A stretch of DNA of 50,780 nucleotides, from contig CAYRQF010000002.1 of the NCBI GenBank assembly GCA_964426385.1, positions 73,037 to 123,816 of the forward strand, in the 5' to 3' direction. Below the pieces are notes generated by a model that saw only the letters and a program-made list of their open reading frames with translations, searched no databases and was not told the DNA's origin. Origin of the DNA: an uncultured Candidatus Saccharibacteria bacterium. GTDB lineage: Bacteria > Patescibacteriota > Minisyncoccia > Phycocordibacterales > CSBR16-119. Below, one piece after another: positions 4,786-49,964 of the stretch (position 1 is its first letter; each line of letters begins with the position of its first letter). The position numbers were made by a program, and so were the translations under genes.

Positions 4786-4797
4786 GACGAATTTGAG

Positions 4798-6289: not shown

Positions 6290-6302
6290 TAACATTAATC
6301 TC

Positions 6303-7256
6303 ATGTCAGAATCAGTAATATCAATTAAAAATCTTTCGAAGTCTTTCAAGAAAGTCCGAGTCCTAGAGGATATCAATCTCGAGATTAAAAAGGGCACGAT
6401 GCTTGCATTACTCGGACCCAACGGCGCTGGCAAGACAACAACCGTCCGGATACTCTCGACACTTCTCAGTCCTGATAGTGGTGAAGTGAAAGTTGCCGGT
6501 TATGATGTTGTGAAGGATGCTGATGATGTACGTTCATCGATAGGGCTCACCGGACAGTATGCCGCTGTAGACGAACTTCTCACTGGCGAGGAAAATCTGA
6601 TAATGATGGGCAGGCTTTATCATTTATCAAAAGATGATTCTAGAAGGCGTGCATCCGAGCTTCTCCAGGAATTTGACCTCGTAGAGGCCAAAGACCGAAT
6701 CGCCAAGAATTATTCTGGCGGCATGCGTCGACGTCTCGACCTAGCCCTATCGCTCATCGCTACACCTCCGATACTATTTCTCGATGAGCCGACAACCGGA
6801 CTCGACCCGAGAAGTAGACTAAAAATTTGGGAGATTATAGAGAAACTTTTGAAGCAGGGAACAACCATACTTCTCACTACTCAATATCTAGAAGAGGCCG
6901 ATAAACTTGCCGATCAGATAGCCGTTCTGGATCACGGACGGATTATTGCCCTAGGTACATCGGACGAGCTCAAGGCACGTGTCGGCAAAGAGAGATTGGA
7001 GATAATAATTCATCAGTCTAGTAACTTTGATGAAGCGGTAGGCTTGATTGAAGGTGAGGATAAAGATTTCGATAGAGAAGATCGTCGTATCAGTATCGCT
7101 ACCAATGGTAAAGTCGCTGACCTAAAAATAGTTCTGGATAAGCTAAGTGACAGTGGTATCGAAGTCGAGACTCTGTCTATGCATAAGCCCACCCTCGACG
7201 ATGTGTTTATGAAATTAACCGGACGTTCTCGTGAAGATAAAGAGACTGAAAATTAG
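6303..7256 (+). CDS. ABC transporter ATP-binding protein (DrrA/ABC-2 type)
   Basis: Walker A GPNGAGKTT, signature YSGGMRRRL, Walker B ILFLDEPTTGLD. Confidence 0.9.
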   Translation: MSESVISIKNLSKSFKKVRVLEDINLEIKKGTMLALLGPNGAGKTTTVRILSTLLSPDSGEVKVAGYDVVKDADDVRSSIGLTGQYAAVDELLTGEENLIMMGRLYHLSKDDSRRRASELLQEFDLVEAKDRIAKNYSGGMRRRLDLALSLIATPPILFLDEPTTGLDPRSRLKIWEIIEKLLKQGTTILLTTQYLEEADKLADQIAVLDHGRIIALGTSDELKARVGKERLEIIIHQSSNFDEAVGLIEGEDKDFDREDRRISIATNGKVADLKIVLDKLSDSGIEVETLSMHKPTLDDVFMKLTGRSREDKETEN

Positions 7257-7257
7257 T

Positions 7258-8067
7258 ATGGAAAATATAACAACAGTTCAAAAGAAGAAAGCTTCGAAAC
7301 TATACTGGGCTTTTTCCGACACGTTCATACTTGTCGGTCGTAGTATTAAACATATCACCAAGAACCTGGATCAGCTTCTGTCTATAGTCATCTCCCCGAT
7401 TATGTTTATGATGCTTTTTCGCTATGTTTTCGGTGGCGCGATAGATACCGGTGGAACAACATACGTGAATTATCTCGTGGCGGGCATATTGGTTCAGACT
7501 GCAGCATTCGGAGCCACTACAACTTCGCTATCCGTTGCGAACGACCTTAAAAAAGGCATCATCGAGCGCATCAAAACTCTACCCATCGTTGGTTCGGGTG
7601 TTATCACGGGTCATGTCGTTGGAGACTTGTTCCGCAACACTCTGTCGTCGATAGTTATGATAGGAGTAGCACTGCTTGTCGGTTTCAGGCCGACGGCAAA
7701 TTTCATAGAGTGGCTTATGATTCTCGGGATTCTACTTATTTTTACTTTTGCTTTTTCTTGGCTATCGGGAATCCTCGGACTCATCGCCAAATCTGTCGAG
7801 GCTGTTCAGTGGATCGGCTTCGTTCTGGTATTTCCGTTAACCTTCGCCTCGAGCGCATTCGTACCGACTGCAGGTATGCCGTCGGGGCTCCGGTACTTCG
7901 CCGAGAATCAACCCGTCACGCACGTGATCGAGGCTATACGTGCGCTCATGATTGGCACTCCGATAGGGGATCATGCAAAGCTTGCTGTTATCTGGTGCGC
8001 GGGCATCATCATCGTGTGTATTCCGCTGGCCGCATATCTATTCCGCCATCACAAAGGTATGAGATAA
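7258..8067 (+). CDS. ABC-2 type transporter permease
   Basis: ATG 7258 comes 1 nt after the ATPase stop. About 6 TM segments. It pairs with the upstream DrrA-like ATPase. Confidence 0.85.
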   Translation: MENITTVQKKKASKLYWAFSDTFILVGRSIKHITKNLDQLLSIVISPIMFMMLFRYVFGGAIDTGGTTYVNYLVAGILVQTAAFGATTTSLSVANDLKKGIIERIKTLPIVGSGVITGHVVGDLFRNTLSSIVMIGVALLVGFRPTANFIEWLMILGILLIFTFAFSWLSGILGLIAKSVEAVQWIGFVLVFPLTFASSAFVPTAGMPSGLRYFAENQPVTHVIEAIRALMIGTPIGDHAKLAVIWCAGIIIVCIPLAAYLFRHHKGMR

Positions 8068-27765: not shown

Positions 27766-28131
27766 ATGAAAATCGACGCCCATTATTATACGAGAGCCAC
27801 ACAGAGCATCTTCATCGTGGCCGGAATACTGATGCTTTTCAGTTTTCCGTATTTTTTCAAGGAGTTTGAAGCGACAGCTCTCGCTCTCTGGCTCGTTATT
27901 ATTCTCCTAGCAATATTTGCGGGTCTCGCTGGCGGTGGCAATGCTTTGACTAGAAAGATAAATGTCGTTATAGCTGTCGGTGCGTTCGTTTTGTCGTCGT
28001 ATCGTGCCATAACTTTGTATTTCTCAGAAACCGAGGAGCCAGTAATGATATTTTCATTCTGGATATTACAGATACTCTCTTTACTATTTTTTCTCGCGAT
28101 ATATTTCAGTATCCGTGCTACACGTAAATAA
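27766..28131 (+). CDS. membrane protein, unknown function
   Basis: 121 aa with 4 TM segments. It ends 7 nt before the VirD4-like gene. Confidence 0.5.
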   Translation: MKIDAHYYTRATQSIFIVAGILMLFSFPYFFKEFEATALALWLVIILLAIFAGLAGGGNALTRKINVVIAVGAFVLSSYRAITLYFSETEEPVMIFSFWILQILSLLFFLAIYFSIRATRK

Positions 28132-28138
28132 TACATAG

Positions 28139-30094
28139 ATGAATCCCGATAACGTAACATATTTTGGAGAAACTGACTTCCGAGGTGAGAAACGTCGTTT
28201 CGGAATAAAGAACGAAGATCGTTCGAGGCATGTTTATGTTATCGGAAAGACGGGTATGGGTAAGTCGACACTACTCGAGAATATGGCCGCCCAAGATATC
28301 CAAAACGGAGAGGGAATGTGCTTCATCGACCCTCACGGTTCGGCCATCGACACATTGCTCGAGTATATCCCAGAGGATCGCATAAAAGACGTGGTGTATT
28401 TTGCGCCGTTTGATTCAGACTATCCTATCGCTTTTAACGTCATGGAAGATGTCGGTATCGACCAACGTCACCTCGTCGTGTCAGGACTCATGTCTGCATT
28501 CAAAAAGATTTGGGTAGATGCATGGTCTGCCAGAATGGAGCATATTTTAAACAACACTATCCTCGCGCTTCTCGAGTATCCTGGTTCGACCTTGCTATCT
28601 GTAAACCGAATGTATGCCGATAAAGGTTTCCGAGAGGAGGTGGTATCGAAAGTCAAAGATCCCGCAGTCAAAAGTTTCTGGAACGAAGAGTTCGCCAAAT
28701 GGGATGAAAGGTTCATGCGTGAAGCGACAGCCGCGATTCAGAACAAGGTTGGTCAATTCACCGCGAATCCTCTCATCAGGAATATCGTCGGACAGGCGAG
28801 ATCGAGTTTCGATCTCCGTGAGATGATGGATAACGGCAAGATATTCCTAGTGAACTTATCCAAAGGACGTATCGGTGAGCAGAATGCCGCACTTCTCGGC
28901 GCCATGATTGTGACCAAGATATATCTCGCAGCCATGTCTCGCGCAGAAGTCTCGAAGAACAACATGCGTGAGCTCCCACCGTTTTTTCTATTCGTCGACG
29001 AGTTCCAGAACTTCGCTAACGACTCATTCTCTGACATTCTCTCAGAAGCCCGTAAGTATAAACTGAACCTAACTATCGCTCATCAGTATATAGAACAGAT
29101 GGAAGAAGAAGTTCGCGATGCTGTGTTTGGTAACGTCGGTACGACGATATCATTTCGTGTGGGACCACTCGACGCTGAGGTGTTGGAGAAAGTATTTCTC
29201 CCTACTTTTACTGCAGAAGACATAGTCAATCTCGGTAAGTACCAGATATATTTGTCGCTTATGATTAACGGCGTCGGTTCCAAGCCTTTTTCTGCAACAA
29301 ATATGGCGCCACTCAAAAGAAAGAGTATCTCATATAGGACTGAAGTTATCGAGAATTCTAGGAGTCTCTACGCTCATTCTCGGGACGAAGTACAGGGTGG
29401 AATAGAGGCGTGGCACGGCACGCTTTTCGAAACAGGTAAGGATAAAAAGGAGCGGGAGAAGAAAGAGGCCTATATCGCGGAAAAAGCTGAGAAAGAGAAG
29501 CTTCTATACGGCGACAAGCCGAAGCCTACTGAACCCGCCAAGATTGTTATACCAACGGATATCATCAAGAAAGTTACAGAAAGTGCTGCCCCTCGAGAAG
29601 ACCGTAATGCCAATCCCTCTCAGAATCGTTCCAGTATGCCAAGCCAGCCTAGAAATGACAGGCCATCTGCAAGGCCCGATAACCAGAACAGGACTGCAGA
29701 GTCTCGCAGTAATACACCCGCTGACGCAAACAAGAGATTCTCTCAGAGTAAAATCCCAACAGAGAAAAACAAATCTTTACTAAAGGACGTCTTGTCCAAG
29801 GCTCTACAGAAGCCCACAAGTCAGCCAGTTGCTTCTCCTCAGAATATAAATATTCATGTCGAGCAGAAGAATATCAACGTTGAGGTGAATCGTCCTCAGT
29901 CAATTACAGACATCAAGCAGACTCCCGTTATAAAGACGGAAGTTTCGGAAGTGCAGGAGAAAGAAAAAGCAGAAACTACCTTTATTCCACGGCCAAAGCA
30001 GGCAGAACCTACACCTCCGCCGAATCAGGATAGTGGAGAGAAGAAAAAACCGAGAGAAATACCAGAAGATATTTTAAAGCAAATATTAGAATAA
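28139..30094 (+). CDS. VirD4/TraD/TraG-like coupling-protein-family ATPase (soluble) with a long disordered C-terminal tail
   Basis: Walker A GKTGMGKST, Walker B FFLFVDEFQNF, and LSEARKYKLNLTIAHQYIEQM resembling the TraG/TraD C-terminal module. No N-terminal TM helices. The last ~230 aa are K/P/Q/E/N-rich low complexity. Confidence 0.7.
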   Translation: MNPDNVTYFGETDFRGEKRRFGIKNEDRSRHVYVIGKTGMGKSTLLENMAAQDIQNGEGMCFIDPHGSAIDTLLEYIPEDRIKDVVYFAPFDSDYPIAFNVMEDVGIDQRHLVVSGLMSAFKKIWVDAWSARMEHILNNTILALLEYPGSTLLSVNRMYADKGFREEVVSKVKDPAVKSFWNEEFAKWDERFMREATAAIQNKVGQFTANPLIRNIVGQARSSFDLREMMDNGKIFLVNLSKGRIGEQNAALLGAMIVTKIYLAAMSRAEVSKNNMRELPPFFLFVDEFQNFANDSFSDILSEARKYKLNLTIAHQYIEQMEEEVRDAVFGNVGTTISFRVGPLDAEVLEKVFLPTFTAEDIVNLGKYQIYLSLMINGVGSKPFSATNMAPLKRKSISYRTEVIENSRSLYAHSRDEVQGGIEAWHGTLFETGKDKKEREKKEAYIAEKAEKEKLLYGDKPKPTEPAKIVIPTDIIKKVTESAAPREDRNANPSQNRSSMPSQPRNDRPSARPDNQNRTAESRSNTPADANKRFSQSKIPTEKNKSLLKDVLSKALQKPTSQPVASPQNINIHVEQKNINVEVNRPQSITDIKQTPVIKTEVSEVQEKEKAETTFIPRPKQAEPTPPPNQDSGEKKKPREIPEDILKQILE

Positions 30095-30110
30095 TTAATT
30101 TTATTTTCGT

Positions 30111-31592
30111 ATGAGTAAGAAAATATTTTACAAAGCGTTGTTCGTTGTTGCTTTTTTGCTGGGTCCAAAGTTTGTCGGTGCGGAAATTATGATTACGGAG
30201 GTGGCTTGGATGGGGACTGCTGCTTCAGCCAACGATGAATGGCTGGAGCTCTATAATGACGGCTCAAGCCCCGTGAATCTCTCGGGTTGGAGTATCGTTT
30301 CCGCGGACGGTACTCCGAGCATTAATCTCTCGGGCACTCTACCGGCAGGAGCGTACGGTCTGGTTGAGAGGACTGACGACACTACATATCCAGGCATAAC
30401 AGCGTTACATATTTTTACTGGCGCTTTCGGGAACGAAGGTGAGAATTTGTCGCTTAAAAACGGAGGAGTTACCGCGCAGACTTTGGCATTTGCAGGCGGT
30501 TGGCCTGCTGGAGATGTTACGACTAAACATACGATGCAGTGGAACGGGTCTAGTTGGATAACTGGCGCAGAGTCAGCAGGTGGTCCAACAACGGCGACAG
30601 GAGAAGGGGATGACGATGACGATACTGAGGGAGATGACGACGATACTACCGGCGACGATGATACAACAGGGGATGACGACACTACTGCCGATGATGATAC
30701 TTCGGGCGACGACGATGATTCAGAGAATTCGAGTTCTAAATCAAGTGTCAAGGCGGGTCCCGTCAGAAAAGTCTATGATGACATGATATTTGAGCTTGAT
30801 TTTCCGAAGCGTGCTATTGCTGGAAGTCCTGCGCACTTCAAAGCGCAAGCGCTAGATTTTGATCGGACGCCGATGTTCCAGGGAACATATATGTTCAATA
30901 TGGGAGACGGTACGATACGTACATATACTAGAGATTTTAATAAAGATGAAGAAGGTTTCATGCATACGTACGATCATCCAGGGTCATATCTCATCAAGAT
31001 CAAATACTATAGAACATATTTCGAAGGAGTTGATCCTGAAGTGGACGACACTTTTACCATAGAAGTGAGTGCTCCGACTGTGTCAATCGCCGGAGTGCAC
31101 CCGGATGGCAGTATAGAGATGAAGAATAGCTCGTCGAACGAGATTGATATATCGGGATGGAGGCTTCGAGACGCTACAGGTAAGAGCTTCGATATTCCCG
31201 AAGACACCATAGTGCTTGCGGGCAAATCCATGACCCTCTCAGTAAAGAGAACAAAACTCTCACCCCAGAGCGGAGTTAGTCTCTACACTCCGACTGGTGT
31301 ACAGGCCACAGTTTGGAGCCCTGTTGCTCTAAAAGTAGCTCGTGTCGTTGTTCCAGCTTCGAAGAGAGAAGCGGTAGAGCCAACAGGTGAAGTGCTAGGT
31401 ATATCTGACACCCTGATCTCGACCAGAGAAGCGTCGGTCCTCGAGGAACCGCTCGTATCGAAAGATAAGAATCAGCAGGGACTTATATTTACACTTTTGT
31501 TTATTATCCTAGTGCTCATATCTGTCATAGCAGTAATGTTCCTACAAAAAAGCGAAAAACCCGTAAATGAATACGAGCTTATCGACGAGTAA
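30111..31592 (+). CDS. surface protein with two lamin-tail-like domains, an Asp-rich repeat linker and a C-terminal TM anchor
   Basis: ITEVAWMGTAASANDEWLELYNDGSSPVNLSGWSI (LTD pattern). A second LTD-like unit is SIEMKNSSSNEIDISGWRLRD. N-terminal signal and C-terminal LIFTLLFIILVLISVIAVMFL. Confidence 0.72.
   Translation: MSKKIFYKALFVVAFLLGPKFVGAEIMITEVAWMGTAASANDEWLELYNDGSSPVNLSGWSIVSADGTPSINLSGTLPAGAYGLVERTDDTTYPGITALHIFTGAFGNEGENLSLKNGGVTAQTLAFAGGWPAGDVTTKHTMQWNGSSWITGAESAGGPTTATGEGDDDDDTEGDDDDTTGDDDTTGDDDTTADDDTSGDDDDSENSSSKSSVKAGPVRKVYDDMIFELDFPKRAIAGSPAHFKAQALDFDRTPMFQGTYMFNMGDGTIRTYTRDFNKDEEGFMHTYDHPGSYLIKIKYYRTYFEGVDPEVDDTFTIEVSAPTVSIAGVHPDGSIEMKNSSSNEIDISGWRLRDATGKSFDIPEDTIVLAGKSMTLSVKRTKLSPQSGVSLYTPTGVQATVWSPVALKVARVVVPASKREAVEPTGEVLGISDTLISTREASVLEEPLVSKDKNQQGLIFTLLFIILVLISVIAVMFLQKSEKPVNEYELIDE
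30604..30722 (+). repeat. in-frame Asp-codon tandem repeat (about 21-nt / 7-aa units)
   Basis: Encodes GDDDDDTEGDDDDTTGDDDTTGDDDTTADDDTSGDDDDSE. Confidence 0.8.
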
Positions 31593-36778: not shown

Positions 36779-37177
36779 CTATTGCAAAAGCTCCAGTTGT
36801 ACTCCCTTGGGTTGCGCTACCAGGCTACCTTGTAAGAACGACGGCTCATCATTGTATCCCCAAACGCTTTTGAAACCTTCACCGTGTTCCTTGTCCCAGA
36901 TCAAGGTGATCTTGGAATTTTCGTCGACGATGAATTCGGGAGATAGTGCGATGGGTGACACCTTCAGTTTATAGGTGTCGTTAGGGTAGTGTTGATTTGA
37001 GTATTCACCAATGGCCATCCAGTTTCCAGTGTAGAAGTAGGAGTCTTTCACAAGAGTAAAGTCCATTCCAGGTTGAAAGACTCTTCGTGTGTGTTCGACG
37101 TGTGTGTCGTCTGGCTCCGAACGGCTGCAGCTCGTGGCGAGTAGTCCAGCAATTGCAGCGAAAAGAATGTACTTCAT
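36779..37177 (-). CDS. putative lipoprotein, unknown function
   Basis: MKYILFAAIAGLLATSCS lipobox-like signal. It has its own TTGACA-16-TAAAAT promoter. Confidence 0.6.
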   Translation of the reverse strand: MKYILFAAIAGLLATSCSRSEPDDTHVEHTRRVFQPGMDFTLVKDSYFYTGNWMAIGEYSNQHYPNDTYKLKVSPIALSPEFIVDENSKITLIWDKEHGEGFKSVWGYNDEPSFLQGSLVAQPKGVQLELLQ

Positions 37178-37203
37178 GTGTTGCGGGGTTTGTTACGGGT
37201 ATT

Positions 37204-37231
37204 ATTTTACATTCGGGATTACCGTTGTCAA
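37204..37231 (-). promoter_or_regulatory. sigma70-type promoter
   Basis: On the minus strand: TTGACA (37231-37226), 16-nt spacer, TAAAAT (37209-37204). Confidence 0.45.
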
Positions 37232-37262
37232 ATTTATAAAATATATATTTTTTTGAAAAACG

Positions 37263-37294
37263 AAAAAGCCCCGGGGTCGCCGGGGCTTCTTTTC
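37263..37294 (-). terminator. intrinsic terminator
   Basis: aagccccgg-ggtcg-ccggggctt with flanking A/T runs. Confidence 0.65.
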
Positions 37295-37308
37295 AGCGGT
37301 GGTAGCAA

Positions 37309-37899
37309 TCACTCAATAATCGCCACAACCATGTTCTCAGGTCCTTGATCATGTTCAGCCGATGTGGTGAACCGCTCTCGGTAAAGTTCAATGCGTACAT
37401 TCGCTGGCGCCATGATAGTGAGATTCGGAAGTGGCCAGGGATTTTCTGAAACCAGGCGGGATAGTTCTGTATGCTTCGTCCCGCAACGTTCGAACCCATA
37501 GTCAGCATCGCTCCGGCGATCATTTCGTTTCTGTAGTTCAGCGATCGTCACCGATGACTTCATACTCTCCTCCAGTGTATTTGGAGGGAGAAGTTTCAGG
37601 ACACCATTCTCGTAGCTGTGATTCCACCCGCCGGGCCAACTCACCGCAAACGAAGGAAAGTTGCCGAGCTGTGCATCGTGGTACACCTCGAGCTCATAAG
37701 CACCATAGTCGAGCGTGTCATCGCGGGTGAAATCCACGAAGTACATGGTCCAGAGATTCTCTGCGAGGAGCCGGTGCTTCTCGGTAGTATCAACAGGGCT
37801 CGTTGTGATCCGCTTGCCGTAACTCGGCAGGTCAGGATTTGTCTGCGCACTGAGTGCGAGTGTAGTTGAAAGGGCGAGGGAAGTCAGCAGATACTTCAT
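37309..37899 (-). CDS. secreted protein, unknown function
   Basis: ATG 37899 gives the signal peptide MKYLLTSLALSTTLALSAQ. The track start 37947 adds 16 residues that do not look like a signal peptide. Confidence 0.6.
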   Translation of the reverse strand: MKYLLTSLALSTTLALSAQTNPDLPSYGKRITTSPVDTTEKHRLLAENLWTMYFVDFTRDDTLDYGAYELEVYHDAQLGNFPSFAVSWPGGWNHSYENGVLKLLPPNTLEESMKSSVTIAELQKRNDRRSDADYGFERCGTKHTELSRLVSENPWPLPNLTIMAPANVRIELYRERFTTSAEHDQGPENMVVAIIE

Positions 37900-37956
37900 G
37901 GTCGTTCGGTTTGTTTTTACCTTACTGATATATATGGATTCTGTCAATAAAAAAGT

Positions 37957-41790: not shown

Positions 41791-41844
41791 GAGTTTTTTT
41801 CTTAAATCCTAATTCCTAAATCTTAAATCTGATATAATATTTAT

Positions 41845-42375
41845 ATGATTGATCCCAAAGACAACATCAAACAATTCGGCATCCAAGAAGGCTGGCATGT
41901 TGCTGATCTCGGTGTCGGATATGGACACTATGCTTACGCACTTTCGGCGGCTGTAGGTCCAGATGGCAAAGTTTTTGCCATAGATATCCAAAAAGACATG
42001 CTGGAAAGGCTGAAGAAGGAGGTGGAAGAGAAACATATCAAAAATATCGAGGTTATATGGGGCGATGTTGAAATCGTCGGCGGTACGAAGCTTCGCGTTG
42101 ATTCTCTCGATGCCCTCGTCATATCGAACGTTTTGTTCCAGATAGACTCCAAGGCTGGCATGGTGCATGAGGCGTCACGTGTACTCAAAACTGGCGGTAA
42201 AATTCTCCTCGTAGACTGGTCAGAATCTTTTGGTGGTCTTGGTCCGCAACCGGGAATGGTTGTTGACGAAGCTACCGCTCGACGCATCTTTGAGACGGGA
42301 CCTTTCGAGTACAAGAAGTCTATCGATGCTGGAGAACATCACTATGGAATGGTATTCGAGAAGAAAACTTCATAG
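41845..42375 (+). CDS. class I SAM-dependent methyltransferase
   Basis: Motif I VADLGVGYGHY, and post-I/II LKTGGKILLVDW. Confidence 0.8.
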   Translation: MIDPKDNIKQFGIQEGWHVADLGVGYGHYAYALSAAVGPDGKVFAIDIQKDMLERLKKEVEEKHIKNIEVIWGDVEIVGGTKLRVDSLDALVISNVLFQIDSKAGMVHEASRVLKTGGKILLVDWSESFGGLGPQPGMVVDEATARRIFETGPFEYKKSIDAGEHHYGMVFEKKTS

Positions 42376-42439: not shown

Positions 42440-43750
42440 ATGAAAGGTTTTCAGGTAGGTGTTTTAATATTTTTCGGAGTATTCGTATTCCTGGGTGTTT
42501 TGATATTCTCAGGAGCGATAAACGTCGGTGGCAAGAAGGATGCCGCCGTAGCGGCTGTTGATCGTTCTATTGTCTTGTGGGGGATTGTTCCAGAATCGAG
42601 ACTCGAGAGTTCGATAAGCTTTCTCAACAAGAAAAATCCAGGTAGTCCTATAAAATACGTAGAAAAGGATGTACGAACTTATGAGCAGGAGCTTCTAGAA
42701 GCCTTCGCGTTCGGAGGATTGCCGGACATGTTCCTCATGTCCCAAGACCTCATTTTTACCTATGAGGATAAGATCATTAACATACCATTTACGTATTTCC
42801 CAGAAGCAACATTTGATGAGACCTATGTTAGGTCTGCGGAATTGTTCAAGCGACCAGAAGGCTTCCTCGGCTTTCCGATATTTTCCGATCCATTGGTCAT
42901 GTATTACAACCAGGATATCCTCGAAACCGCCGGTTTTACCGCACCACCGAAGTATTGGAGTGACCTCTTTACTTACGTACCAAAACTCACAACTAAAAAT
43001 GAAGCTCTAGAGATATCAGTTTCAGGAGTTGCCATGGGCGAGTTCACAAACATAAAGAATGCCAAGGAGATATTTATGGCACTCATGCTCCAGCTTAACA
43101 ACAGCGTCATTGCTCGAGACAGTACAAGGGGTATGTATGTCCCTATATTAAACCAGGGATCCACTGTCTCTGCACAGCCAGCTATCCAGTCACTACGATT
43201 TTACACGGAGTTTTCTGATCCACTGAAGACCGTTTACTCATGGAACAAATCGATGAAAAACTCTCTAGACGCATTTATTGCTGGTGAGCTCGCTATATAT
43301 TTCGGTCCAGTCAGTGAGTTTAGAAATATCTCAAGTAAGAACCCAAATCTAAATTTCGATGTGACAACTATTCCTCAGGTAAAAGAGCTGAGTACGACTA
43401 TTACATATGCTGACGTTTATGCTCTAGCCATACCTCGGGTATCACCTAAAGCACAGTTGGCGCTATCTGTTTCAGCTCAGCTTGCAAATGGTGCAGATAC
43501 TGCCACGATAATATCAGCGAGCGGATTCGCACCCATTAGACGTGATCTTATCGCAGCTCCAAACCCGACCAAATTTAACAAAGTTTTTAACAGTGCAGCG
43601 CTCAATTCTAGATCATGGATGGATCCTAACGATCTGAAGACACAGGAAACTTTTATGAATATGTTTGAGAACATCTCCTCTGGTCTAGACACTCCAGAGG
43701 ATGCTGTAAAGCGTGCCGAAAGAGAACTAAGGTTATTGCTCATCAAATGA
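42440..43750 (+). CDS. membrane-anchored extracellular solute-binding-protein-like protein (family 1), orphan
   Basis: N-terminal TM segment. PDMFLMSQD and DPLVMYYNQDILETAGFTAPPKYWSDL match the MalE-like SBP pattern. No ABC permease or ATPase is adjacent. The stop overlaps the first pilin start (ATGA). Confidence 0.65.
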   Translation: MKGFQVGVLIFFGVFVFLGVLIFSGAINVGGKKDAAVAAVDRSIVLWGIVPESRLESSISFLNKKNPGSPIKYVEKDVRTYEQELLEAFAFGGLPDMFLMSQDLIFTYEDKIINIPFTYFPEATFDETYVRSAELFKRPEGFLGFPIFSDPLVMYYNQDILETAGFTAPPKYWSDLFTYVPKLTTKNEALEISVSGVAMGEFTNIKNAKEIFMALMLQLNNSVIARDSTRGMYVPILNQGSTVSAQPAIQSLRFYTEFSDPLKTVYSWNKSMKNSLDAFIAGELAIYFGPVSEFRNISSKNPNLNFDVTTIPQVKELSTTITYADVYALAIPRVSPKAQLALSVSAQLANGADTATIISASGFAPIRRDLIAAPNPTKFNKVFNSAALNSRSWMDPNDLKTQETFMNMFENISSGLDTPEDAVKRAERELRLLLIK

Positions 43751-44964
43751 TAAATATAGATAAGTTAAAAATCTTCTCACTGTTTATACTAGCACTTGCT
43801 CTTTCGCCGTTCTCGACAGCTATTGCCCAGCAACCGGGAGATATCATGGCGCCGAATACTGCTCAGCCGATGTGGATCGCAGGAGTGAATTGGGGGGCGG
43901 TGACTGAATCGGGCTCATCGCTTGTCACAGATCGTTCGATATCTATAACAGGTGCACGGATTATTCCTCTTCCTCCTGATGGAGTCAAAACATTTCGAGT
44001 CGAGTACGGTCGGGGAGTTCCCGGTCAGAACACAGACTATGGACAGGGTTATATCGGTCAGAGTAATCCGATAACCGTCGATGACATGATGAATCCTGCG
44101 TATAGTTTCGGCGGCAATATCAACAGCTTGATGCCAGCGACTGACTACTATCTAAACATCCGAGAGATGGGTCAGGTTGGCGGGAACGATGTTACGGGTA
44201 ACTTGTTCGTGTATGGCTTCGTAAAAACTAGCAAGATTCCTTCGGGAAGCGTGAGTTATAGCTTCATTTCAAATAATACGACAATGAAGGTCTCCGGACA
44301 TCTCATAAACAGTGCCGGTGTCGCCCTCATGAACGCTTCCGTAAACATAATCGTGGCACCTGTCGTGAACGGTGCTCCAGATATGAACGGAGCTATGACT
44401 TCAGGATTAATTACCGGAGGTACGAGTATGATGAACGGTAATGGTTATTTCAATACTACGATGACCGGACCTGTAACACCTGGAAGTTCTTACTATCTGA
44501 TGATTCAGTATCAATCGACAGGAAACGATATTATCGAGCCGATACTTCTCACTGTTCCTACTTATAATGCGCAGGATACTGACCCTGAACCGAACCCTGA
44601 TACTGATAACGAATATGAACTTGAGGGGCCGTCATACAATGGACTAGTGGTTGAGTGTGGACTTGATTGCGATTTTTATGATCTTATCGCCACCATCAAT
44701 CGTGTTATTGATTTTATGATCAAGTTTATCGCATTCCCATTGGTCGCTATTGTCGTAGCATGGGCAGGATTCAAGATGATTATAAGCGGGGGTAGTTCGG
44801 AGGCTGTCGGCTCAGCCAAGAAAATGATATGGAAAGTCGTAATAGGTCTATGCATAGCTCTCCTGTGTTGGGTTATAATCAAGCTTATACTCGTAACACT
44901 CGGATATGTCCCTGGTGGTCCACTATGGTGTCTGTTTAATATTACGCCTCAGTGCACACCCTAA
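43747..44964 (+). CDS. TrbC/VirB2-type pilin-like protein with a ~290-aa N-terminal passenger domain (P1)
   Basis: Signal ...STAIAQ. C-terminal module FIAFPLVAIVVAWAGFKMIISGGSSEAVGSAKKMIWKVVIGLCIALLCWVII. Confidence 0.65.
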   Translation: MINIDKLKIFSLFILALALSPFSTAIAQQPGDIMAPNTAQPMWIAGVNWGAVTESGSSLVTDRSISITGARIIPLPPDGVKTFRVEYGRGVPGQNTDYGQGYIGQSNPITVDDMMNPAYSFGGNINSLMPATDYYLNIREMGQVGGNDVTGNLFVYGFVKTSKIPSGSVSYSFISNNTTMKVSGHLINSAGVALMNASVNIIVAPVVNGAPDMNGAMTSGLITGGTSMMNGNGYFNTTMTGPVTPGSSYYLMIQYQSTGNDIIEPILLTVPTYNAQDTDPEPNPDTDNEYELEGPSYNGLVVECGLDCDFYDLIATINRVIDFMIKFIAFPLVAIVVAWAGFKMIISGGSSEAVGSAKKMIWKVVIGLCIALLCWVIIKLILVTLGYVPGGPLWCLFNITPQCTP

Positions 44965-44967
44965 TAT

Positions 44968-45882
44968 ATGAAATACTACACTCAGATAATAATGATATTT
45001 GTTCTCGCTCTGACCTTCGGCTTCACCGCAGATGTCGAAGAAGCCTCGGCGCAGTCATGTGATGTAACTTCGGCGCAGTTTCGTACTAATCGCGAGGTAA
45101 ACTCGATATTCTATGATGACGAGAATACCCCATACGTGTATATAGACATAGTTACGGCTAACTGCTCAGGCGAGACCATCCAAGTATCGATAACCGAGGA
45201 CGACGCTGGTGTCGACGATGATGTTAATGGAACACTCGGTATGGGGCAGACTTGTAACGAGACTAATCCGAGTTGTATGGATAATAGGGTTATCAGTATT
45301 ACGGGCAACGAGACTACTCTCTCACTGCGCGCAGGCGAAGATGAGTGCCAGAGTGCGGGGAATCCTGATTGTGACTACCACATCGAAACTTGGGACGAAG
45401 TTGATAGTGGATATGAGTGGGAATCGGGACTTCAGCTCAACTATAATTGTGATGGGGCATGCCAAAATAACTGGCAGTATCTCGGTACCCTCACGCCTTT
45501 TGGGGCTTCAGATCAGGGCGACCAAGACGACGATGGTGATGCAGGGGTAGACGAGGGCGCTGATGCCAGTGTGGATGAGAATAGTATAGGCATACAGGCG
45601 ACGAACTATGACCTAAGCCTCAACAATCCTTTGGCTGGGACCATAGATAGTATCCCGCAGTTATTACAGAAAATAGTGAATGTCATCATCAAGGTAAGCA
45701 TCCCGATTGTAGCCATGGCTATCGTGTTCTCTGGATTCCTATTCGTCACCGCTCGAGGCTCAGATGAGCAACTGAAGAAGGCGAAACAGGTTCTACTCTA
45801 TGCTGTTATCGGAGGACTCATCCTGATGGCATCATGGCTTATCGCTGAGGCGATATATTCAGCATTAACAAGTTTTGATTAG
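44968..45882 (+). CDS. TrbC/VirB2-type pilin-like protein with a Cys-rich/acidic N-terminal passenger domain (P2)
   Basis: Signal ...EEASAQ. C-terminal module VSIPIVAMAIVFSGFLFVTARGSDEQLKKAKQVLLYAVIGGLILMASWLI. Confidence 0.65.
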   Translation: MKYYTQIIMIFVLALTFGFTADVEEASAQSCDVTSAQFRTNREVNSIFYDDENTPYVYIDIVTANCSGETIQVSITEDDAGVDDDVNGTLGMGQTCNETNPSCMDNRVISITGNETTLSLRAGEDECQSAGNPDCDYHIETWDEVDSGYEWESGLQLNYNCDGACQNNWQYLGTLTPFGASDQGDQDDDGDAGVDEGADASVDENSIGIQATNYDLSLNNPLAGTIDSIPQLLQKIVNVIIKVSIPIVAMAIVFSGFLFVTARGSDEQLKKAKQVLLYAVIGGLILMASWLIAEAIYSALTSFD

Positions 45883-45884
45883 AC

Positions 45885-46730
45885 ATGATTAATTCTTTCA
45901 AGAAAAATTTTGCATACATAGCACTGCTCGCAGGGGTGTTAGTTCTGCCTCACCAAGTTTCTGCTGATCCTGGTTTAAACATGGGGCTTATGAACGTTAC
46001 TCCGATGACCGGAGACTTTATCGTCACTACACAGTTACAGCCCGTAGAAATAAGTTCGTTTTCGAGCTTCACCCTGATTGGCGTTATCGATGCTGATGGG
46101 CTCGATATGCCACTCGGAGATATTAGAACTTTACCTATCAACCTAAACGGCGGATATATAAACGTGAACATGATGCTGAACTATGACCCAGCAGGATACA
46201 CATTCCAATTTTGTTTAGTCGACAGTCTAGACCTGGTGACACAGGGTGGACAATACCTATTCAATCCAAATAATCCTGCGTATGATCCACTTTATTGTAG
46301 TAGTCCCTCTTTGTACCAGCCTGGCAATCAAGATGGAGATGCCGATGTCGAAGAAGACGATACGATCATAACTCCAGACACCACCCAGCCAGGAACGGGT
46401 AGTCCTAACCCGATAGTATTCACGACGAGCATCGCGAATCCTCTCGGCGAAGATATGGACATACTCGACTTCTTGAAGCGATTGTTTGTGAATATGGTGA
46501 AGATAGCCTTTCCATTCCTAGTACTATTCATGATGTATGCCGGCTTTATGTTCATCGAGGCGCGCGGTAACGAGGAGAAGCTCAAGAAAGCCAAGAAGAA
46601 TTTCCTTTACGTTGTACTGGGAGCTCTCTTGGTCCTCGGAGCTTGGACTATCGCTTCGGTCATAAAGGGAACTGTTGATGAGATCGCAGAACCGACCGTA
46701 TTTATAGAAATTATTAATAATATTGTTTAA
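45885..46730 (+). CDS. TrbC/VirB2-type pilin-like protein with an N-terminal passenger domain (P3)
   Basis: Signal ...HQVSAD. C-terminal module IAFPFLVLFMMYAGFMFIEARGNEEKLKKAKKNFLYVVLGALLVLGAWTI. Confidence 0.65.
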   Translation: MINSFKKNFAYIALLAGVLVLPHQVSADPGLNMGLMNVTPMTGDFIVTTQLQPVEISSFSSFTLIGVIDADGLDMPLGDIRTLPINLNGGYINVNMMLNYDPAGYTFQFCLVDSLDLVTQGGQYLFNPNNPAYDPLYCSSPSLYQPGNQDGDADVEEDDTIITPDTTQPGTGSPNPIVFTTSIANPLGEDMDILDFLKRLFVNMVKIAFPFLVLFMMYAGFMFIEARGNEEKLKKAKKNFLYVVLGALLVLGAWTIASVIKGTVDEIAEPTVFIEIINNIV

Positions 46731-46731
46731 C

Positions 46732-47106
46732 ATGAAAAGAATCTATATAGCGCTGATGCCACTTTTATCATTTGCCCCTCTGGTTGTTTCGGCCCAGGAA
46801 CAGACTGGCGCCTGTCAGTACAACATAAACAGTATCGCTCTAGTTTTCCATCTCTTCGGGTGTATTCTCGCATCAGCCGTCATTCCGATGTTGGTAACCC
46901 TCACCGTTGTAGTCTTTATAATCGGCGTGCTCAAATATATCGCTGGTGCGGACGAAGCAGCGAAGCGTGAAGAGGGTCGCAAATTCATGATATACGGAAT
47001 CGTGGGACTTTTCGTCATGGTTTCTATCTGGGGACTCGTTGGAATCTTGCAGGGAACATTTGGACTCGGCACGAACATTCTTCTTCCACAGATGACTGAG
47101 TTCTAG
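46732..47106 (+). CDS. TrbC/VirB2-type pilin-like protein, short form (P4)
   Basis: ATG 46732. Signal ...LVVSAQ. AVIPMLVTLTVVVFIIGVLKYIAGADEAAKREEGRKFMIYGIVGLFVMVSIWGLVGIL. Confidence 0.7.
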   Translation: MKRIYIALMPLLSFAPLVVSAQEQTGACQYNINSIALVFHLFGCILASAVIPMLVTLTVVVFIIGVLKYIAGADEAAKREEGRKFMIYGIVGLFVMVSIWGLVGILQGTFGLGTNILLPQMTEF

Positions 47107-47214
47107 GTTGCGTTGTCGATTAGGGCATATGCTATAATATGTAAACCTAACGGTAATTTAAATATTGGTCGTCCATATTTATTATTAGCATTATTATTAG
47201 TAAATCATTTTTAT

Positions 47215-47646
47215 ATGAAGAAATTGTCTAGATTATTAAGCGGAGCAGCAGCGTTTGCATTACCTGCACTCGCCTTTGCTCAGACTACAGATGTCGGTGT
47301 ACAGCTCGATACAACTGACGCCTTTGATTTGATGGGAACTGTTTCTCAAATATTCGGAATCTTGATTCCGATTCTCGTCACGTTCGCAGTTATATACATC
47401 ATTGTTGGTGTTATCAAATACGCCACAGCATCTGATGATGAGACTCAGGCATCAGCTAGGAAGAGCATCCTACACGGAATCATCGCTCTCTTCGTTATCG
47501 TCTCTATCTGGGGACTTGTTGCTATCCTCAACAGTACATTCAACATCGGACAGAACGGAGAAAACCTCGGAGTTTGTCAGGAAGTATGGGTTCCTAACGA
47601 CGAACCGCCATATTACGGAGAATTCGTGGTTCCACCAGGCTGCTAA
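47215..47646 (+). CDS. TrbC/VirB2-type pilin-like protein, short form (P5)
   Basis: ATG 47215. Signal ...ALAFAQ. ILIPILVTFAVIYIIVGVIKYATASDDETQASARKSILHGIIALFVIVSIWGLVAIL. The nucleotide stretch around VSIWGLV is nearly identical to P4. Confidence 0.7.
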   Translation: MKKLSRLLSGAAAFALPALAFAQTTDVGVQLDTTDAFDLMGTVSQIFGILIPILVTFAVIYIIVGVIKYATASDDETQASARKSILHGIIALFVIVSIWGLVAILNSTFNIGQNGENLGVCQEVWVPNDEPPYYGEFVVPPGC

Positions 47647-47652
47647 TACTAT

Positions 47653-48015
47653 ATGTGGGATCTTCTTACGATATTTACGCCGGTCGCTTATGCCGATGTC
47701 GATACCTTCGTCAAGAAGCTGAATACCTATATATTCAATCCCGCGATAATACTGATGGTAACTCTGGCGACCGTATACTTCCTCTATGGGATATACGAGT
47801 ACGTTCAGGGGTCGGCGAGCGATGAGGCTAGGGAGAAAGGCCAGAGACACATGCTCTGGGGCCTCATCGGACTCACGATAATGGTATCCGTGTTCTTCAT
47901 TATGAAAGTCTTACTCGGTACGATAGGTATAGATGAGAGTGAGATAAACGTAGAGACCGGACAAGTTAACTTCGGAACTACGATAAATGGAGAGACGATA
48001 CCAGGAGGAGGATAA
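47653..48015 (+). CDS. TrbC/VirB2-type pilin-like protein, short form (P6)
   Basis: Short signal ...PVAYAD. IFNPAIILMVTLATVYFLYGIYEYVQGSASDEAREKGQRHMLWGLIGLTIMVSVFFIM. Confidence 0.6.
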   Translation: MWDLLTIFTPVAYADVDTFVKKLNTYIFNPAIILMVTLATVYFLYGIYEYVQGSASDEAREKGQRHMLWGLIGLTIMVSVFFIMKVLLGTIGIDESEINVETGQVNFGTTINGETIPGGG

Positions 48016-48033: not shown

Positions 48034-48061
48034 GAAGCCCCGGGACAGGTCCCGGGGCTTC
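48034..48061. terminator. bidirectional intrinsic terminator
   Basis: gaagccccggga-cagg-tcccggggcttc (12-bp stem). Confidence 0.7.
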
Positions 48062-48119: not shown

Positions 48120-49403
48120 CTAGTGACGGCGGTGTGGCCGTTTGCCACCGTTTCTTCCACCTTGTACCTGTTCACCGATAGCACTCGCTGTAGCAGCGGG
48201 GCCAAATGCTCCAGCTGCCTTTGCGAGGTGTCCGACGATCTTCTCGATGTCCCCTGGTTGATATCCGAGGTCCTTGAGTTCCTTGGCGATAGTGCCGAGG
48301 TCCTTGGAACCACCGAGGCTCAAGCTGATCCGCTGTCTGCGAATCTCATCACCATCCAGGTCTCCCGTTAGGGTCATGGCTGCTTCAACGAGGTTGTCTC
48401 CTGTGAGACCGAGCTTCGCGAAGTATTTGACGGCGACATCCAAGCGACCCTTTTTGGCATCGACCTCCGCGTTCATCGAGGACTTCTTCCGCAGTGATGC
48501 GGCAAGTTCAGGATTTGGCGAGAGGTCGTTGATGTGGATGTTGTAGAGTCCGAGTCCGCACTCGGTATCAACCACACGTTCCTTATGACCGCTGATCTTT
48601 ACCCACAGTAGTCGGATCTCCGATGCTTGGTCACCCTCTACCTTGCTGAAAGCCTCTGAGAGCTTCTGATCAAGATCAGGTGATCCCATGACATCTCTCA
48701 GTTTGAGATCAGTCACAGCTAGCCTCATCAAAGATGAGGAGGTGTCCTGCAGGTCGTTATACAGTAGCAGGTTACCTGCTGTGTCGTCCTTGCCCTGAGC
48801 GAAGCGTCTTATCAGCTTGAATAGGTCGAGGGGTAGAAGGGAGCCAGTAATATCTGGTGGTCCACCGTCCTTGTTTGTGACCTGCACGAGATCCTTCCCG
48901 GTACCTTTTACGTAGAACGTACCTGGCGGCTTCACGTCGACCGTGTTGCCTCCGAGCGCTATCTGGTAGTAGTTGAACATGCGATATGCCGCATGCTCTC
49001 CAGGAAGGAGGTAGAAACCCTGTCGAAAAAACGAGGGTAACCACCACTTCTTATCCCAGTTTGGCTGGACACCTCCGAACATGTCGAAGGCTATCAGGTG
49101 ACCTGGGCCAGAACTTACGTATCGCATAGGGTTGAAGTACAAGAGGAGGAGCGAGGCGAGGATAGGGGAGAGCCCGTATATCAGAGCTCCCGCCATGTCT
49201 TCCCACCACTCAGCACCAAACATGCTGGCCACGTAGATCACCAAGCAGAGGAAGGCTGTTACGACGATGCTTTGTAGTAAGCATACGAACGGCTGTATTC
49301 CACTTGTCAGAAATCGGCCGATACCCCAGCAGTCTGCTCGGTAGTTCATACTCACTTGTTTGGTGCCGCGTTTACGCTTAGCACCGGTTTTGGTAGTTGC
49401 CAT
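48120..49403 (-). CDS. membrane protein, unknown function (weak SPFH/band-7-like impression only)
   Basis: 427 aa. Basic N-tail, two TM helices, a large soluble domain, and a basic C-tail GGRNGGKRPHRRH. About 60% GC by hand count of one line. Confidence 0.5.
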   Translation of the reverse strand: MATTKTGAKRKRGTKQVSMNYRADCWGIGRFLTSGIQPFVCLLQSIVVTAFLCLVIYVASMFGAEWWEDMAGALIYGLSPILASLLLLYFNPMRYVSSGPGHLIAFDMFGGVQPNWDKKWWLPSFFRQGFYLLPGEHAAYRMFNYYQIALGGNTVDVKPPGTFYVKGTGKDLVQVTNKDGGPPDITGSLLPLDLFKLIRRFAQGKDDTAGNLLLYNDLQDTSSSLMRLAVTDLKLRDVMGSPDLDQKLSEAFSKVEGDQASEIRLLWVKISGHKERVVDTECGLGLYNIHINDLSPNPELAASLRKKSSMNAEVDAKKGRLDVAVKYFAKLGLTGDNLVEAAMTLTGDLDGDEIRRQRISLSLGGSKDLGTIAKELKDLGYQPGDIEKIVGHLAKAAGAFGPAATASAIGEQVQGGRNGGKRPHRRH

Positions 49404-49415: not shown

Positions 49416-49964
49416 TTAGCGTTTACAGCGTGTAACCGAGATCGTACCCGTGCCCTTTGCGATGAATCCTTCCTTTAGGTCGGAAATCGTAAAGGGTGGT
49501 TCGGGAGTATTGCCTCCGAACGGGTATGAACCGCTCTTCAGGACGACAGTCATCAGACCTTCCGTGTGGACGTTCAGTTTGCCTGCGTCTTTATTGCGCA
49601 GTAGTAAGGGGTCCACAACAACCTTAGTCTCGCCATTGATCACATGATCGTCTGGTGGGGTACAGGGGTTGCTGTCGGTGGTCGGCGTAGCAGTAGTTGC
49701 CGTGCTGACACCCGGTCCACCATTTCTGGCGGTTGCGGTCGTTCCAGCAGTAGTAGTAGAACTCTTCTTCTTGTTCTCAGCTGCATCAAGGCGTTCGCTC
49801 ATGGTGCCCCATCGTACAAAGAATACGGTGACACCGATAAGCATGAAGGCTATCATTGAGATCAACTTGTACCAGTAGAACGTACTACCAGAGGTTTCTG
49901 GCTTCATTCTCTGCACGAATCCATCAAGTGGATTCGGGCCATTTTCTGCGTTCGCGGCTTTCAT
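49416..49964 (-). CDS. single-pass membrane protein with a Thr/Ala-rich linker, unknown function
   Basis: 182 aa with TM segment LISMIAFMLIGVTVFFV. It ends 12 nt upstream of the 48120..49403 start, so co-transcription is likely. Confidence 0.5.
   Translation of the reverse strand: MKAANAENGPNPLDGFVQRMKPETSGSTFYWYKLISMIAFMLIGVTVFFVRWGTMSERLDAAENKKKSSTTTAGTTATARNGGPGVSTATTATPTTDSNPCTPPDDHVINGETKVVVDPLLLRNKDAGKLNVHTEGLMTVVLKSGSYPFGGNTPEPPFTISDLKEGFIAKGTGTISVTRCKR

Follow-up and report, generated by a model that had tools for sequence, protein, structure and literature searches.

A gyrA-linked array of six VirB2-like pilin paralogues, candidate subunits of a heteromeric surface fibre in Patescibacteria

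Six tandem VirB2-like pilin genes

The DNA analyzed here, a stretch of 50,780 nucleotides referred to below as the window (contig CAYRQF010000002.1, positions 73,037 to 123,816, assembly GCA_964426385.1), comes from an uncultured Candidatus Saccharibacteria bacterium belonging to the Patescibacteria (candidate phyla radiation, CPR) and carries six co-directional open reading frames (ORFs), P1 to P6, identified by ORF calling at positions 43747-48015 of the + strand. Their products belong to the pilin family PF18895 (T4SS_pilin), and the resemblance to classical TrbC/VirB2 pilins appears to be weak and sub-threshold. The array is read most economically as encoding a surface structure made of several subunits. 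We assign a probability of about 0.55 to the reading that this chromosomal VirB2-like pilin array is the pilin component of a divergent, non-conjugative apparatus resembling a type IV secretion system (T4SS), widespread in Patescibacteria, and that it builds a heteromeric surface fibre; the formation of filaments by P1-P6 is suggested by the features of their sequences. The system is of a known kind, in a conserved and apparently undescribed configuration.

Matches to PF18895 were obtained in the C-terminal part of all six proteins, and therefore the array is not a product of chance. Five of the six scores exceed the gathering cut-off of 26.6 bits (P2 30.2, P3 35.9, P4 32.2, P5 40.4, and P6 26.9 bits), and that of P1 (25.2 bits) is 1.4 bits under it; P1 orthologues are annotated PF18895. 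The leader, the two hydrophobic helices, and the short charged loop that characterize PF18895 are all present, as judged from hydropathy, the alignment of the modules, and AlphaFold models of P5 and P1. A hidden Markov model (HMM) built from the six modules recovered P1-P6 and no further match in the 50.8 kb. A preliminary description of this DNA, which had proposed a T4SS-pilin family recurrent in CPR genomes and an HMM search as the check, is thus borne out in this respect by the five scores above the cut-off.

The most plausible starts give the following genes, all on the + strand: P1, 43747-44964 (405 aa, a "giant pilin"); P2, 44968-45882 (304 aa); P3, 45885-46730 (281 aa); and the three short pilin-like proteins P4, 46732-47106 (124 aa), P5, 47215-47646 (143 aa), and P6, 47653-48015 (120 aa). 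The maximal ORF of P4 begins at a TTG (46723), as does that of P5 (TTG 47113), which would span the conserved promoter described below. A 116-aa variant of P4 in the Logan contigs L002 and L004 was discarded as a different start call, the DNA being 100% identical to that of the window. The P1 ATG overlaps the stop codon of the upstream gene, which encodes a solute-binding protein (SBP), by 4 nt (ATGA), and the gaps between successive genes measure 3 (P1/P2), 2 (P2/P3), 1 (P3/P4), 108 (P4/P5), and 6 nt (P5/P6). The co-directional arrangement, the overlap at the start of P1, and the four junctions out of five of 6 nt or less had all been correctly reported in the preliminary description.

Architecture and predicted topology of the proteins

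The leaders of P1-P6 end in AIAQ, ASAQ, VSAD, VSAQ, AFAQ, and AYAD, respectively; these endings and the six inter-helix loops previously listed were found literally in the sequence. Hydropathy profiles show two C-terminal hydrophobic helices in each of the six proteins, and hairpins were also obtained in the two proteins modelled with AlphaFold. In P5, the leader helix is followed by a helical hairpin (H36-71/H75-108; mean pLDDT, the predicted local distance difference test, 75); in P1, the model (mean pLDDT 82) comprises the leader, two beta-sandwich domains, and the hairpin (H310-346/H351-384). The two-helix module proposed earlier for each protein is therefore confirmed.

The first three proteins carry large N-terminal ectodomains. 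P1 consists of a signal peptide predicted to be cut behind AIA27, a pair of FN3-like beta-sandwich domains (aa 32-160 and 169-270), an acidic, disordered linker (aa 286-305), and the C-terminal PF18895-like hairpin (nt 44674-44898). Its ectodomain resembles tandem FN3 domains (Foldseek E 2e-7, prob 1.0), and its orthologues measure 373-533 aa, some of them having fn3 or Pur_ac_phosph_N domains; versions of 721-929 aa occur among the relatives. Giant pilins of 929 and 721 aa are encoded, together with the same SBP and array module, at positions 170-7654 of a contig binned as "Flavobacteriaceae bacterium" (L024, JBLHIK010000009.1), which is probably a mis-binned Patescibacteria contig. P2 is composed of a signal peptide, an acidic ectodomain with eight Cys residues, and the PF18895 hairpin (aa 227-296, nt 45646-45855), and P3 of a signal peptide, some 160 aa of ectodomain, an acidic linker, and the PF18895 hairpin (aa 197-260, nt 46473-46664). 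Neither the P2 ectodomain taken alone nor that of P3 matched any Pfam family. In P4, a Cys pair is all that accompanies the signal peptide and the hairpin. In P5, the candidate major subunit, the signal peptide and hairpin are followed by a C-terminal tail in which a Cys...Cys loop is conserved.

P1-P5 have normal Sec leaders. That of P6 (47653-47697) is atypical, with about 14 aa, no basic n-region, and an end in AYA followed by D; this shortness is kept in the orthologues, most of which have about 9-16 aa ending in AYA followed by S or D. The P6 leader may reflect a different mode of processing or insertion.

The charged residues are distributed in a consistent way. Each inter-helix loop of P1-P6 contains 2-6 Lys/Arg residues, and the number of Lys/Arg is 0-1 in all six C-terminal tails and in the segments preceding the first helix of P4 and P5 (that of P6 has two Lys). 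In the short proteins, the loop holds nearly all the Lys/Arg, and acidic residues and conserved Cys pairs characterize the outer tails. This confinement of the basic residues to the loop, together with the acidic Cys-bearing tails, fits an N-out/C-out topology.

Natural fusions were also observed, in which a single leader is followed by two or three hairpin modules of the P4/P5 class, giving 4-6 transmembrane (TM) helices (L043 9156-9863; L028 2352-3059; L042 7992-8708; L027 306-1088; P0129, P0130, and P0137). These single-chain proteins provide a Rosetta-stone hint that adjacent short subunits work side by side.

Relationship to known pilin families

The classical family PF04956 (TrbC/VirB2; cut-off 27.9 bits) gave its best score with P3 (23.4 bits, E 6.9e-5), followed by 11 bits with P1; P2, P4, P5, and P6 gave no match. 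The label "TrbC/VirB2-type" given to the array in the preliminary description is therefore weaker than it was put, being supported with respect to PF18895 and sub-threshold with respect to PF04956. P2-P6 match NCBIfam NF045849, the Mbov_0395 pilin-like conjugal transfer protein of the integrative and conjugative elements (ICEs) of Mycoplasma, with E values down to 2e-9, all the scores (37 bits for P5) being lower than the cut-off of 40 bits. A profile of the P5 family, which recovers 15,997 cluster representatives at E <= 1e-3, found the pKM101 pilin TraM (8cw4) as its top match in the PDB, with an E value of only 0.047. CPR relatives annotated with both PF18895 and PF04956 exist. The single hit annotated PF04956 (P0094) was considered as a bridge to true TrbC and was rejected, since it is one more CPR pilin, with mostly PF18895 proteins among its relatives.

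No N_methyl or type IV pilin family of Pfam matched P1-P6. A type IV pilin or pseudopilin of the type II secretion system (T2SS) was also rejected on the grounds that the leaders end in A-x-A, as in signal peptidase I substrates, and that the hydrophobic module is C-terminal.

Conservation and evolution of the array

A scan of species-representative genomes yielded 62 related loci, labelled as Candidatus Paceibacterota, Nomurabacteria, Campbellbacteria, or generic "Saccharibacteria" metagenome-assembled genomes; the NCBI places Nomurabacteria in the Parcubacteria group, which we take to be equivalent to the GTDB class Paceibacteria. These labels point to the Parcubacteria for the window as well. 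The best identity to P5 among the species representatives is 69%, so that the species of the window is not one of them. The position linked to gyrA is shared by the arrays of 54 out of these 62 loci, which gives a positive answer to the synteny comparison proposed earlier. The number of module genes per locus is mostly 5-6 (range 2-10), the smallest numbers being those on contig fragments. Best-hit assignments are collinear: in the 12 closest complete arrays, the gene at each position is the counterpart of the P gene of the same rank by a wide margin, and the loci further removed carry five genes, arranged as P1, (P2 or P3), P4, P5, P6. P2 and P3 appear, from this distribution, to derive from one ancestral position by a lineage-specific split. 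The existence of positional orthologues in about 60 genomes indicates that the array is ancient and that its members are differentiated.

The pairwise identity between the modules of P1-P6 is 9-40%, and two groups can be distinguished, P1-P3 and P4-P6. The P4 and P5 modules are 40% identical. At the nucleotide level, 20 out of 22 bases are identical between 47020-47041 (P4) and 47500-47521 (P5), in agreement with the near-identity noted previously. This match is the core of a stretch of 51 nt with 80% identity, the only such stretch between any two members, and encodes the VSIWGLV of helix 2, the most conserved motif of the family, in which S, W, and G are invariant throughout the P5 family. 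The conclusion that had been drawn from it, that duplication is ongoing, did not hold in view of the positional orthologues, of the module identity, and of the purifying selection on P4-P6 described below.

A locus from another sample (L003) shows 97.5% identity to the window over P4-P6, with 16 synonymous and no non-synonymous differences (4/0 in P4, none in P5, and 12/0 in P6), which points to strong purifying selection on these three genes. In the same comparison, the convergent gene following the array (48120-49403, - strand) shows 27 synonymous and 11 non-synonymous differences in 794 nt and evolves faster than the adjacent pilin genes. In relatives whose GyrA is 82-87% identical, the SBP is 61-64% identical, the hairpins 51-72%, and the P1 and P2 ectodomains 27-51%; the P3 ectodomain is mostly undetectable. 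The ectodomains of P1-P3 thus evolve much faster than the hairpins. The product at the P2 position is shorter in some relatives (a 149-aa gene call at L008 7800-8249 and an 85-aa ORF at L011 8413-8670), which indicates that the ectodomain was lost or reduced and the hairpin kept.

These data bear on the possibility that the six proteins are redundant, interchangeable pilin variants serving antigenic or host-range variation, as proposed for the VirB2 paralogues of Bartonella and Anaplasma, with ongoing duplication and diversifying selection. This interpretation was offered for pilin arrays in a survey of 3,035 genomes searched with PF04956 and PF18895, in which 441 arrays of 2-11 pilin genes were found in 383 assemblies, with an average identity of 25% and a maximum of 54% (Quinonero-Coronel et al., 2025; PMC12102498). 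The low identity of the modules, the hypervariable ectodomains, and the gain and loss of the P2/P3 ectodomain among relatives are compatible with it. The strict order P1, P2/P3, P4, P5, P6 kept over about 60 genomes is not, nor are the lack of non-synonymous differences in P4-P6 and the fact that no more than one 51-nt stretch reaches 80% identity between any two members. In addition, the members differ in their size, leader, and tail, and a conserved promoter is dedicated to P5-P6 alone. Redundancy is therefore an unlikely explanation, and for this lineage it can be regarded as largely refuted.

Upstream partners and putative transcription units

The array is preceded by two genes with which it shares a conserved order, gyrA, methyltransferase, SBP, and array, in the related loci. 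The SBP (42440-43750, + strand, 436 aa) is a sugar-type protein of the SBP_bac_1 family (Pfam, 3.5e-17) with one N-terminal TM helix, its closest relatives of solved structure being sugar-binding proteins (4r9f, 1e-7). No ABC permease gene adjoins it. Directly 5' of their arrays, 54 of the 62 loci carry an SBP homologue, at a spacing of -10 to +83 nt; the other eight do not include the upstream sequence required, since seven of the arrays begin no more than about 450 nt from the end of a contig and L057 offers only 2.2 kb upstream of its first detected module.

The class I S-adenosylmethionine-dependent methyltransferase (41845-42375, + strand, 176 aa; Pfam Methyltransf_31/25/11) gave only generic matches in NCBIfam and the PDB. 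In related loci, its gene is the direct 5' neighbour of that for the SBP, the two overlapping or being separated by no more than 14 nt in about 30 out of 47 cases. A small generic methyltransferase of this kind is always present between gyrA and the SBP gene (41845-42375; L010-L071), often translationally coupled to the latter. It is conceivable that it modifies the pilins.

An extended -10 promoter-like element, TGATATAAT (41830-41838, + strand), is located 6 nt upstream of the methyltransferase ATG and probably marks where the transcription unit begins. A second one, TGCTATAAT (47130-47138, + strand), lies within the 108-nt spacer between P4 and P5. This internal promoter element is kept in 11 out of 11 aligned sequences (the window and 10 loci), with the variant TATACT in L015, and in 30 out of 59 loci the strict motif lies ahead of the last gene but one, as compared with 5 of 200 other intra-array gaps (background 2.1%). 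On both strands of the window, TGnTATAAT occurs at five sites (17146, 18954, 41830, and 47130 on the + strand and 50044 on the - strand). All five are intergenic, just upstream of a gene, and in the right orientation, which suggests that an extended -10 element without any clear -35 is the usual promoter type of this organism.

Downstream of P6, the terminator scan revealed a perfect GC-rich hairpin with a 12-bp stem (48034-48061) between the P6 stop codon and that of the convergent gene, probably a bidirectional terminator ending the operon. The transcription map suggested by these elements would consist of a promoter followed by the methyltransferase, SBP, and P1-P4 genes, an internal promoter followed by P5-P6, and the terminator. 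Two short motifs, GGTCG[CT] and ATTATTATTA, are kept across relatives in the 5' untranslated region of P5 (47139-47214), which matched nothing in Rfam and does not fold significantly (z 0.5); over the whole window, Rfam gave three tRNAs only.

Genomic context and secretion machinery

The rest of the window carries housekeeping genes: gyrA, hisS, pth, lepB, def, fmt, pyk, ddl, dinB, ychF, an rpsA-like gene, and purine genes. No compositional break was detected in it. The Pfam scans, which took in essentially all the window ORFs of at least 100 aa, detected no VirB8-11, relaxase, or integrase. The preliminary description had seen no VirB4, VirB6, VirB8-11, or relaxase in the 50 kb, and these scans agree.

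It had also referred to an array without secretion machinery, which is correct as regards VirB4 and VirB6 and is to be qualified as regards a VirD4/TraG-type ATPase (28139-30094, + strand) resembling a type IV coupling protein (T4CP) and located 13.6 kb upstream of the array. This protein matches TrwB_AAD_bind, TraG-D_C, T4SS-DNA_transf, and DUF87 above the Pfam cut-offs; its NCBIfam TraD/VirD4 scores are far under the cut-offs, and its sole PDB match is TrwB. It has no TM segment and ends in a low-complexity, disordered tail of 220 aa. Its neighbours in a + strand cluster (27766-31592) are a 121-aa protein with four TM segments (27766-28131) and a surface protein with a Lamin-tail domain (LTD), a PKD domain, and a C-terminal TM anchor (30111-31592), at distances of 7 and 16 nt. 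The cluster looks like a split coupling protein, with a separate TM part, beside a possible DNA- or surface-binding protein. We treat the VirD4-like ATPase as context only.

The ATPase raises the question of whether the array might belong to a mobile element, conjugative or other, such as an ICE with its transfer genes just outside the window, and the sub-threshold matches to the pilin-like proteins of Mycoplasma ICEs point in the same direction. Such an element would be expected to have a relaxase, VirB4, T4CP, and integrase or replicon clustered at a variable site, and all that was found is the T4CP-like ATPase, 13.6 kb away. The array directly follows gyrA in at least 50 genomes with 68-87% GyrA identity, its flanks are housekeeping genes, neither a relaxase or integrase nor a compositional break was found in the 50 kb, and T4CP homologues are near-universal genes on Patescibacteria chromosomes, with about two per genome, mostly unlinked to virB4 (PMC12102498); that of Southlakia is dispensable (PMC12102498). 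This explanation is highly improbable, and the conserved synteny refutes it for practical purposes. The earlier statement that the locus is not a conjugation locus is accordingly upheld by the housekeeping flanks, the lack of a relaxase, and the synteny; the accompanying idea of a filament without a T4SS is not, the virB4 gene of the class being usually located near dnaA.

Some neighbouring genes were considered separately. The convergent genes at 48120-49403 and 49416-49964 were rejected as parts of the system, since they occur beside the array only in the closest relatives. The first of these encodes a 427-aa membrane protein without any family match, whose positional counterpart in L005 (379 aa) weakly matches SPFH/Band 7. 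Two lipoprotein-like genes (...LLATSC and ...LALSAQ; 36779-37947, - strand) lie between ychF and a gene with a metallo-beta-lactamase fold; in L005, ychF and the latter gene are adjacent. Near the start of the window (257-709 and 3979-4785) are genes for a DUF4907 protein and a 268-aa protein ending in ...RVRWF like an outer-membrane beta-barrel. The lipoprotein-like pair, the DUF4907 protein, and the barrel-like protein look Bacteroidota-like and are odd in a monoderm member of the CPR; they could result from horizontal transfer or from an assembly chimera.

Proposed assembly of a surface fibre and alternative readings

A heteromeric fibre might be assembled as follows. Each pilin would be inserted by Sec and cleaved by signal peptidase I, and would then reside in the membrane in an N-out/C-out orientation, with basic loops and with acidic outer segments carrying Cys pairs. 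From this membrane pool, a hetero-oligomeric surface fibre would be built, the separately promoted P5 and perhaps P6 being the bulk subunit. P1-P3 would be low-copy components whose N-terminal FN3-like or Cys-rich domains face outward as host-contact modules. Extraction and polymerization would require a VirB4-type ATPase encoded elsewhere, and the SBP, if co-transcribed, and possibly the methyltransferase might take part in the recognition of ligands or host glycans or in the modification of subunits.

Several points weigh against this reading. In the window, and within 10 kb of the array in all 62 loci, no VirB4, VirB3, VirB6, or TrsD was found; the dependence on a T4SS is therefore an assumption. 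The only large ORFs with a Walker A motif within 10 kb of the array in these loci encode GyrA, IF-2, ClpB, UvrA, FtsH, and an ABC protein. When the P5-family profile was aligned with Agrobacterium-type VirB2 by hhalign, the probability was only 0.65%, which again does not favour the TrbC/VirB2 label, and the alignment was confined to the 'PAxAQ' cleavage motif; this VirB2 profile had a narrow range (five sequences), its sources being plasmids of Agrobacterium, Mesorhizobium, Komagataeibacter, and Novacetimonas, and more diverse members lay outside the reach of tblastn. A tblastn search of the P3 hairpin against 72,556 PLSDB plasmids gave no match. With Foldseek, the P5 hairpin retrieved generic helical hairpins from the PDB (best E 0.6), with no pilin among the top 50, a result that is uninformative with so simple a fold; a two-helix hairpin is so simple that it could equally be a membrane anchor. 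We know of no classical VirB2 pilin with N-terminal domains of 300 aa, and to our knowledge no VirB2-type pilus has yet been visualized in any Patescibacterium. The thin CPR filaments solved so far belong to a different, Ig-fold system, the Pam pili (bioRxiv 10.64898/2026.03.03.709456).

Part of this evidence would also suit a membrane-resident surface platform, in which the hairpins are double-TM anchors or VirB3/PrgI-like inner-membrane subunits, hold the FN3-like or Cys-rich ectodomains in place, and work with the SBP in host-glycan capture or sensing, without any T4SS motor. An ATPase or channel gene near the array is found in none of the 62 loci, the coupling to an orphan SBP is tight and universal, half of the members have large ectodomains, and neither Foldseek nor hhalign shows any specific link to polymerizing pilins. 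The fused versions with four and six TM helices look more like polytopic membrane proteins, and CPR fibres can be formed by membrane-anchored Ig-fold proteins without a trans-envelope machine (bioRxiv 10.64898/2026.03.03.709456). On the other hand, related PF18895 genes are located beside virB4 in 1,135 assemblies (PMC12102498), and the pilins of Candidatus Southlakia epibionticum are essential together with T4SS genes (Wang et al.; PMC10633639). The conservation of the hairpins, including the invariant S-x-W-G of helix 2, is much above that expected of mere anchors, and P4-P6 have almost no ectodomain to anchor. We regard the platform as a tentative alternative, possible and clearly less probable than the fibre.

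A more specific proposal is that the methyltransferase, the SBP, and the five or six hairpin proteins constitute a distinct, virB4-unlinked apparatus of Paceibacteria, a heteromeric VirB2-like fibre with P5/P6 as the bulk subunits and P1-P3 as giant pilins exposing fast-evolving FN3-like or Cys-rich domains, which would act together with the SBP in the recognition of glycans on the host surface or the capture of host-derived sugars. This proposal is doubtful at present and less probable than the platform; if true, it would describe a pilus-coupled machine for host recognition and nutrient capture without any described counterpart.

The functional link between the fibre and a T4SS is drawn mainly by analogy, from the published gene neighbourhoods and from genetics in other classes, and would apply to this array by extension. 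In the survey by Quinonero-Coronel et al. (2025; PMC12102498), pilins were present in 1,948 VirB4-containing assemblies and near virB4 in only 1,135 of them. The supplementary figure of that survey marks arrays "near virB4", and unlinked arrays such as P1-P6 may therefore be under-reported; the related assemblies looked up in its supplement were absent.

Significance

Patescibacteria, which may represent a considerable part of the diversity of bacteria, live attached to other microbes, hold these hosts, and take up resources from them. In the sole genetic study, carried out by transposon sequencing (Tn-seq) on Ca. Southlakia epibionticum, a series of pilins was essential for epibiotic growth, as were T4SS-like genes (PMC10633639), contrary to the earlier statement that no function had been demonstrated for this family. 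What the pilins build is the question that the present locus constrains. In Paceibacteria, the largest class, the paralogues constitute a fixed set, with five or six different components, and are not redundant copies. A P5/P6 pair appears to be under its own promoter, some parts have rapidly evolving domains predicted to face outward, and the set putatively shares its transcription with the genes of a binding protein and a methyltransferase and lies away from the motor genes, none of which was found within 10 kb on either side. These features give testable predictions on the stoichiometry of the subunits, their co-assembly, and the binding of ligands.

Tandem VirB2-like pilins in CPR genomes were already known, and the novelty implied in the preliminary description is not retained, 441 such arrays having been surveyed (PMC12102498). 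There is no mention in that study of solute-binding proteins, gyrA linkage, or extra domains (PMC12102498). A literature search for such a combination returned nothing, and the linkage to gyrA, the methyltransferase, and the SBP, the VirB4-free surroundings, the promoter preceding P5, the FN3-like ectodomains of P1, and the rapid evolution of the ectodomains were not found in the literature.

Comparison with known systems

The classical TrbC/VirB2 pilins (Agrobacterium VirB2, RP4 TrbC, and pKM101 TraM) share with P1-P6 a leader, two helices, and a short basic loop, and their N-out/C-out topology is compatible with that predicted here. Unlike them, P1-P6 have no neighbouring virB1, virB3, or virB4 and occur in a monoderm host. 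Six differentiated paralogues are present instead of one major pilin and VirB5, and in P1-P3 ectodomains of FN3 or Cys-rich type, measuring up to about 260 aa, are fused to the N-terminus. The pilin-like protein of the Mycoplasma ICEs (NF045849, Mbov_0395/MMCAP2_0565; MPF-FATA) resembles P2-P6 in the sub-cut-off match described above and in belonging to a wall-less monoderm, and the VirB4 class of these elements is the reported sister group of Patescibacteria VirB4; however, it is encoded by a single gene within a mobile ICE, beside VirB4.

The resemblance to type IV pili and T2SS pseudopili is a functional analogy only: an abundant subunit and low-copy subunits are encoded in a row, some of them with bulky outward domains. 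The fold and biogenesis are unrelated, and P1-P6 have no class III leader (G/F...E5), N-methylation motif, or PilB/PilC/PilD genes. The Pam pili (bioRxiv 10.64898/2026.03.03.709456) are also built in CPR bacteria from Sec-exported fibre proteins with Ig/FN3-like domains, PamR being membrane-anchored with tandem FnIII domains. Their subunits, in contrast to P1-P6, polymerize by donor-strand exchange and have single C-terminal TM anchors and no helical-hairpin module; a nine-strand beta-sandwich and a truncated Ig domain with a donor strand are characteristic of them. Pam operons include PapD-like anchored chaperones, and no chaperone-like gene is present in the array operon; Pam pili occur mainly in Saccharimonadia and Microgenomatia.

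The closest counterparts are the VirB2-like arrays of other Patescibacteria, those of the survey and that of Southlakia, in which six VirB2-like pilins, structurally conserved and divergent in sequence, were described in a 2025 review (PMC12857230). Common to these arrays and P1-P6 are membership in PF18895, about six divergent tandem paralogues, a monoderm host, a chromosomal location, and the lack of a relaxase, and the pairwise identity of P1-P6 is within the range reported in the survey. The Southlakia pilins sit inside a T4SS cluster (ML1 SEML1_0006-0019; PMC10633639), whereas P1-P6 are neither in nor near a virB4 cluster in the window and within 10 kb in all 62 loci. They differ from the Southlakia-type arrays also in being fixed behind gyrA in a predicted operon with a methyltransferase and an orphan SBP, and in having large N-terminal ectodomains on P1-P3 and a putative internal promoter before P5.

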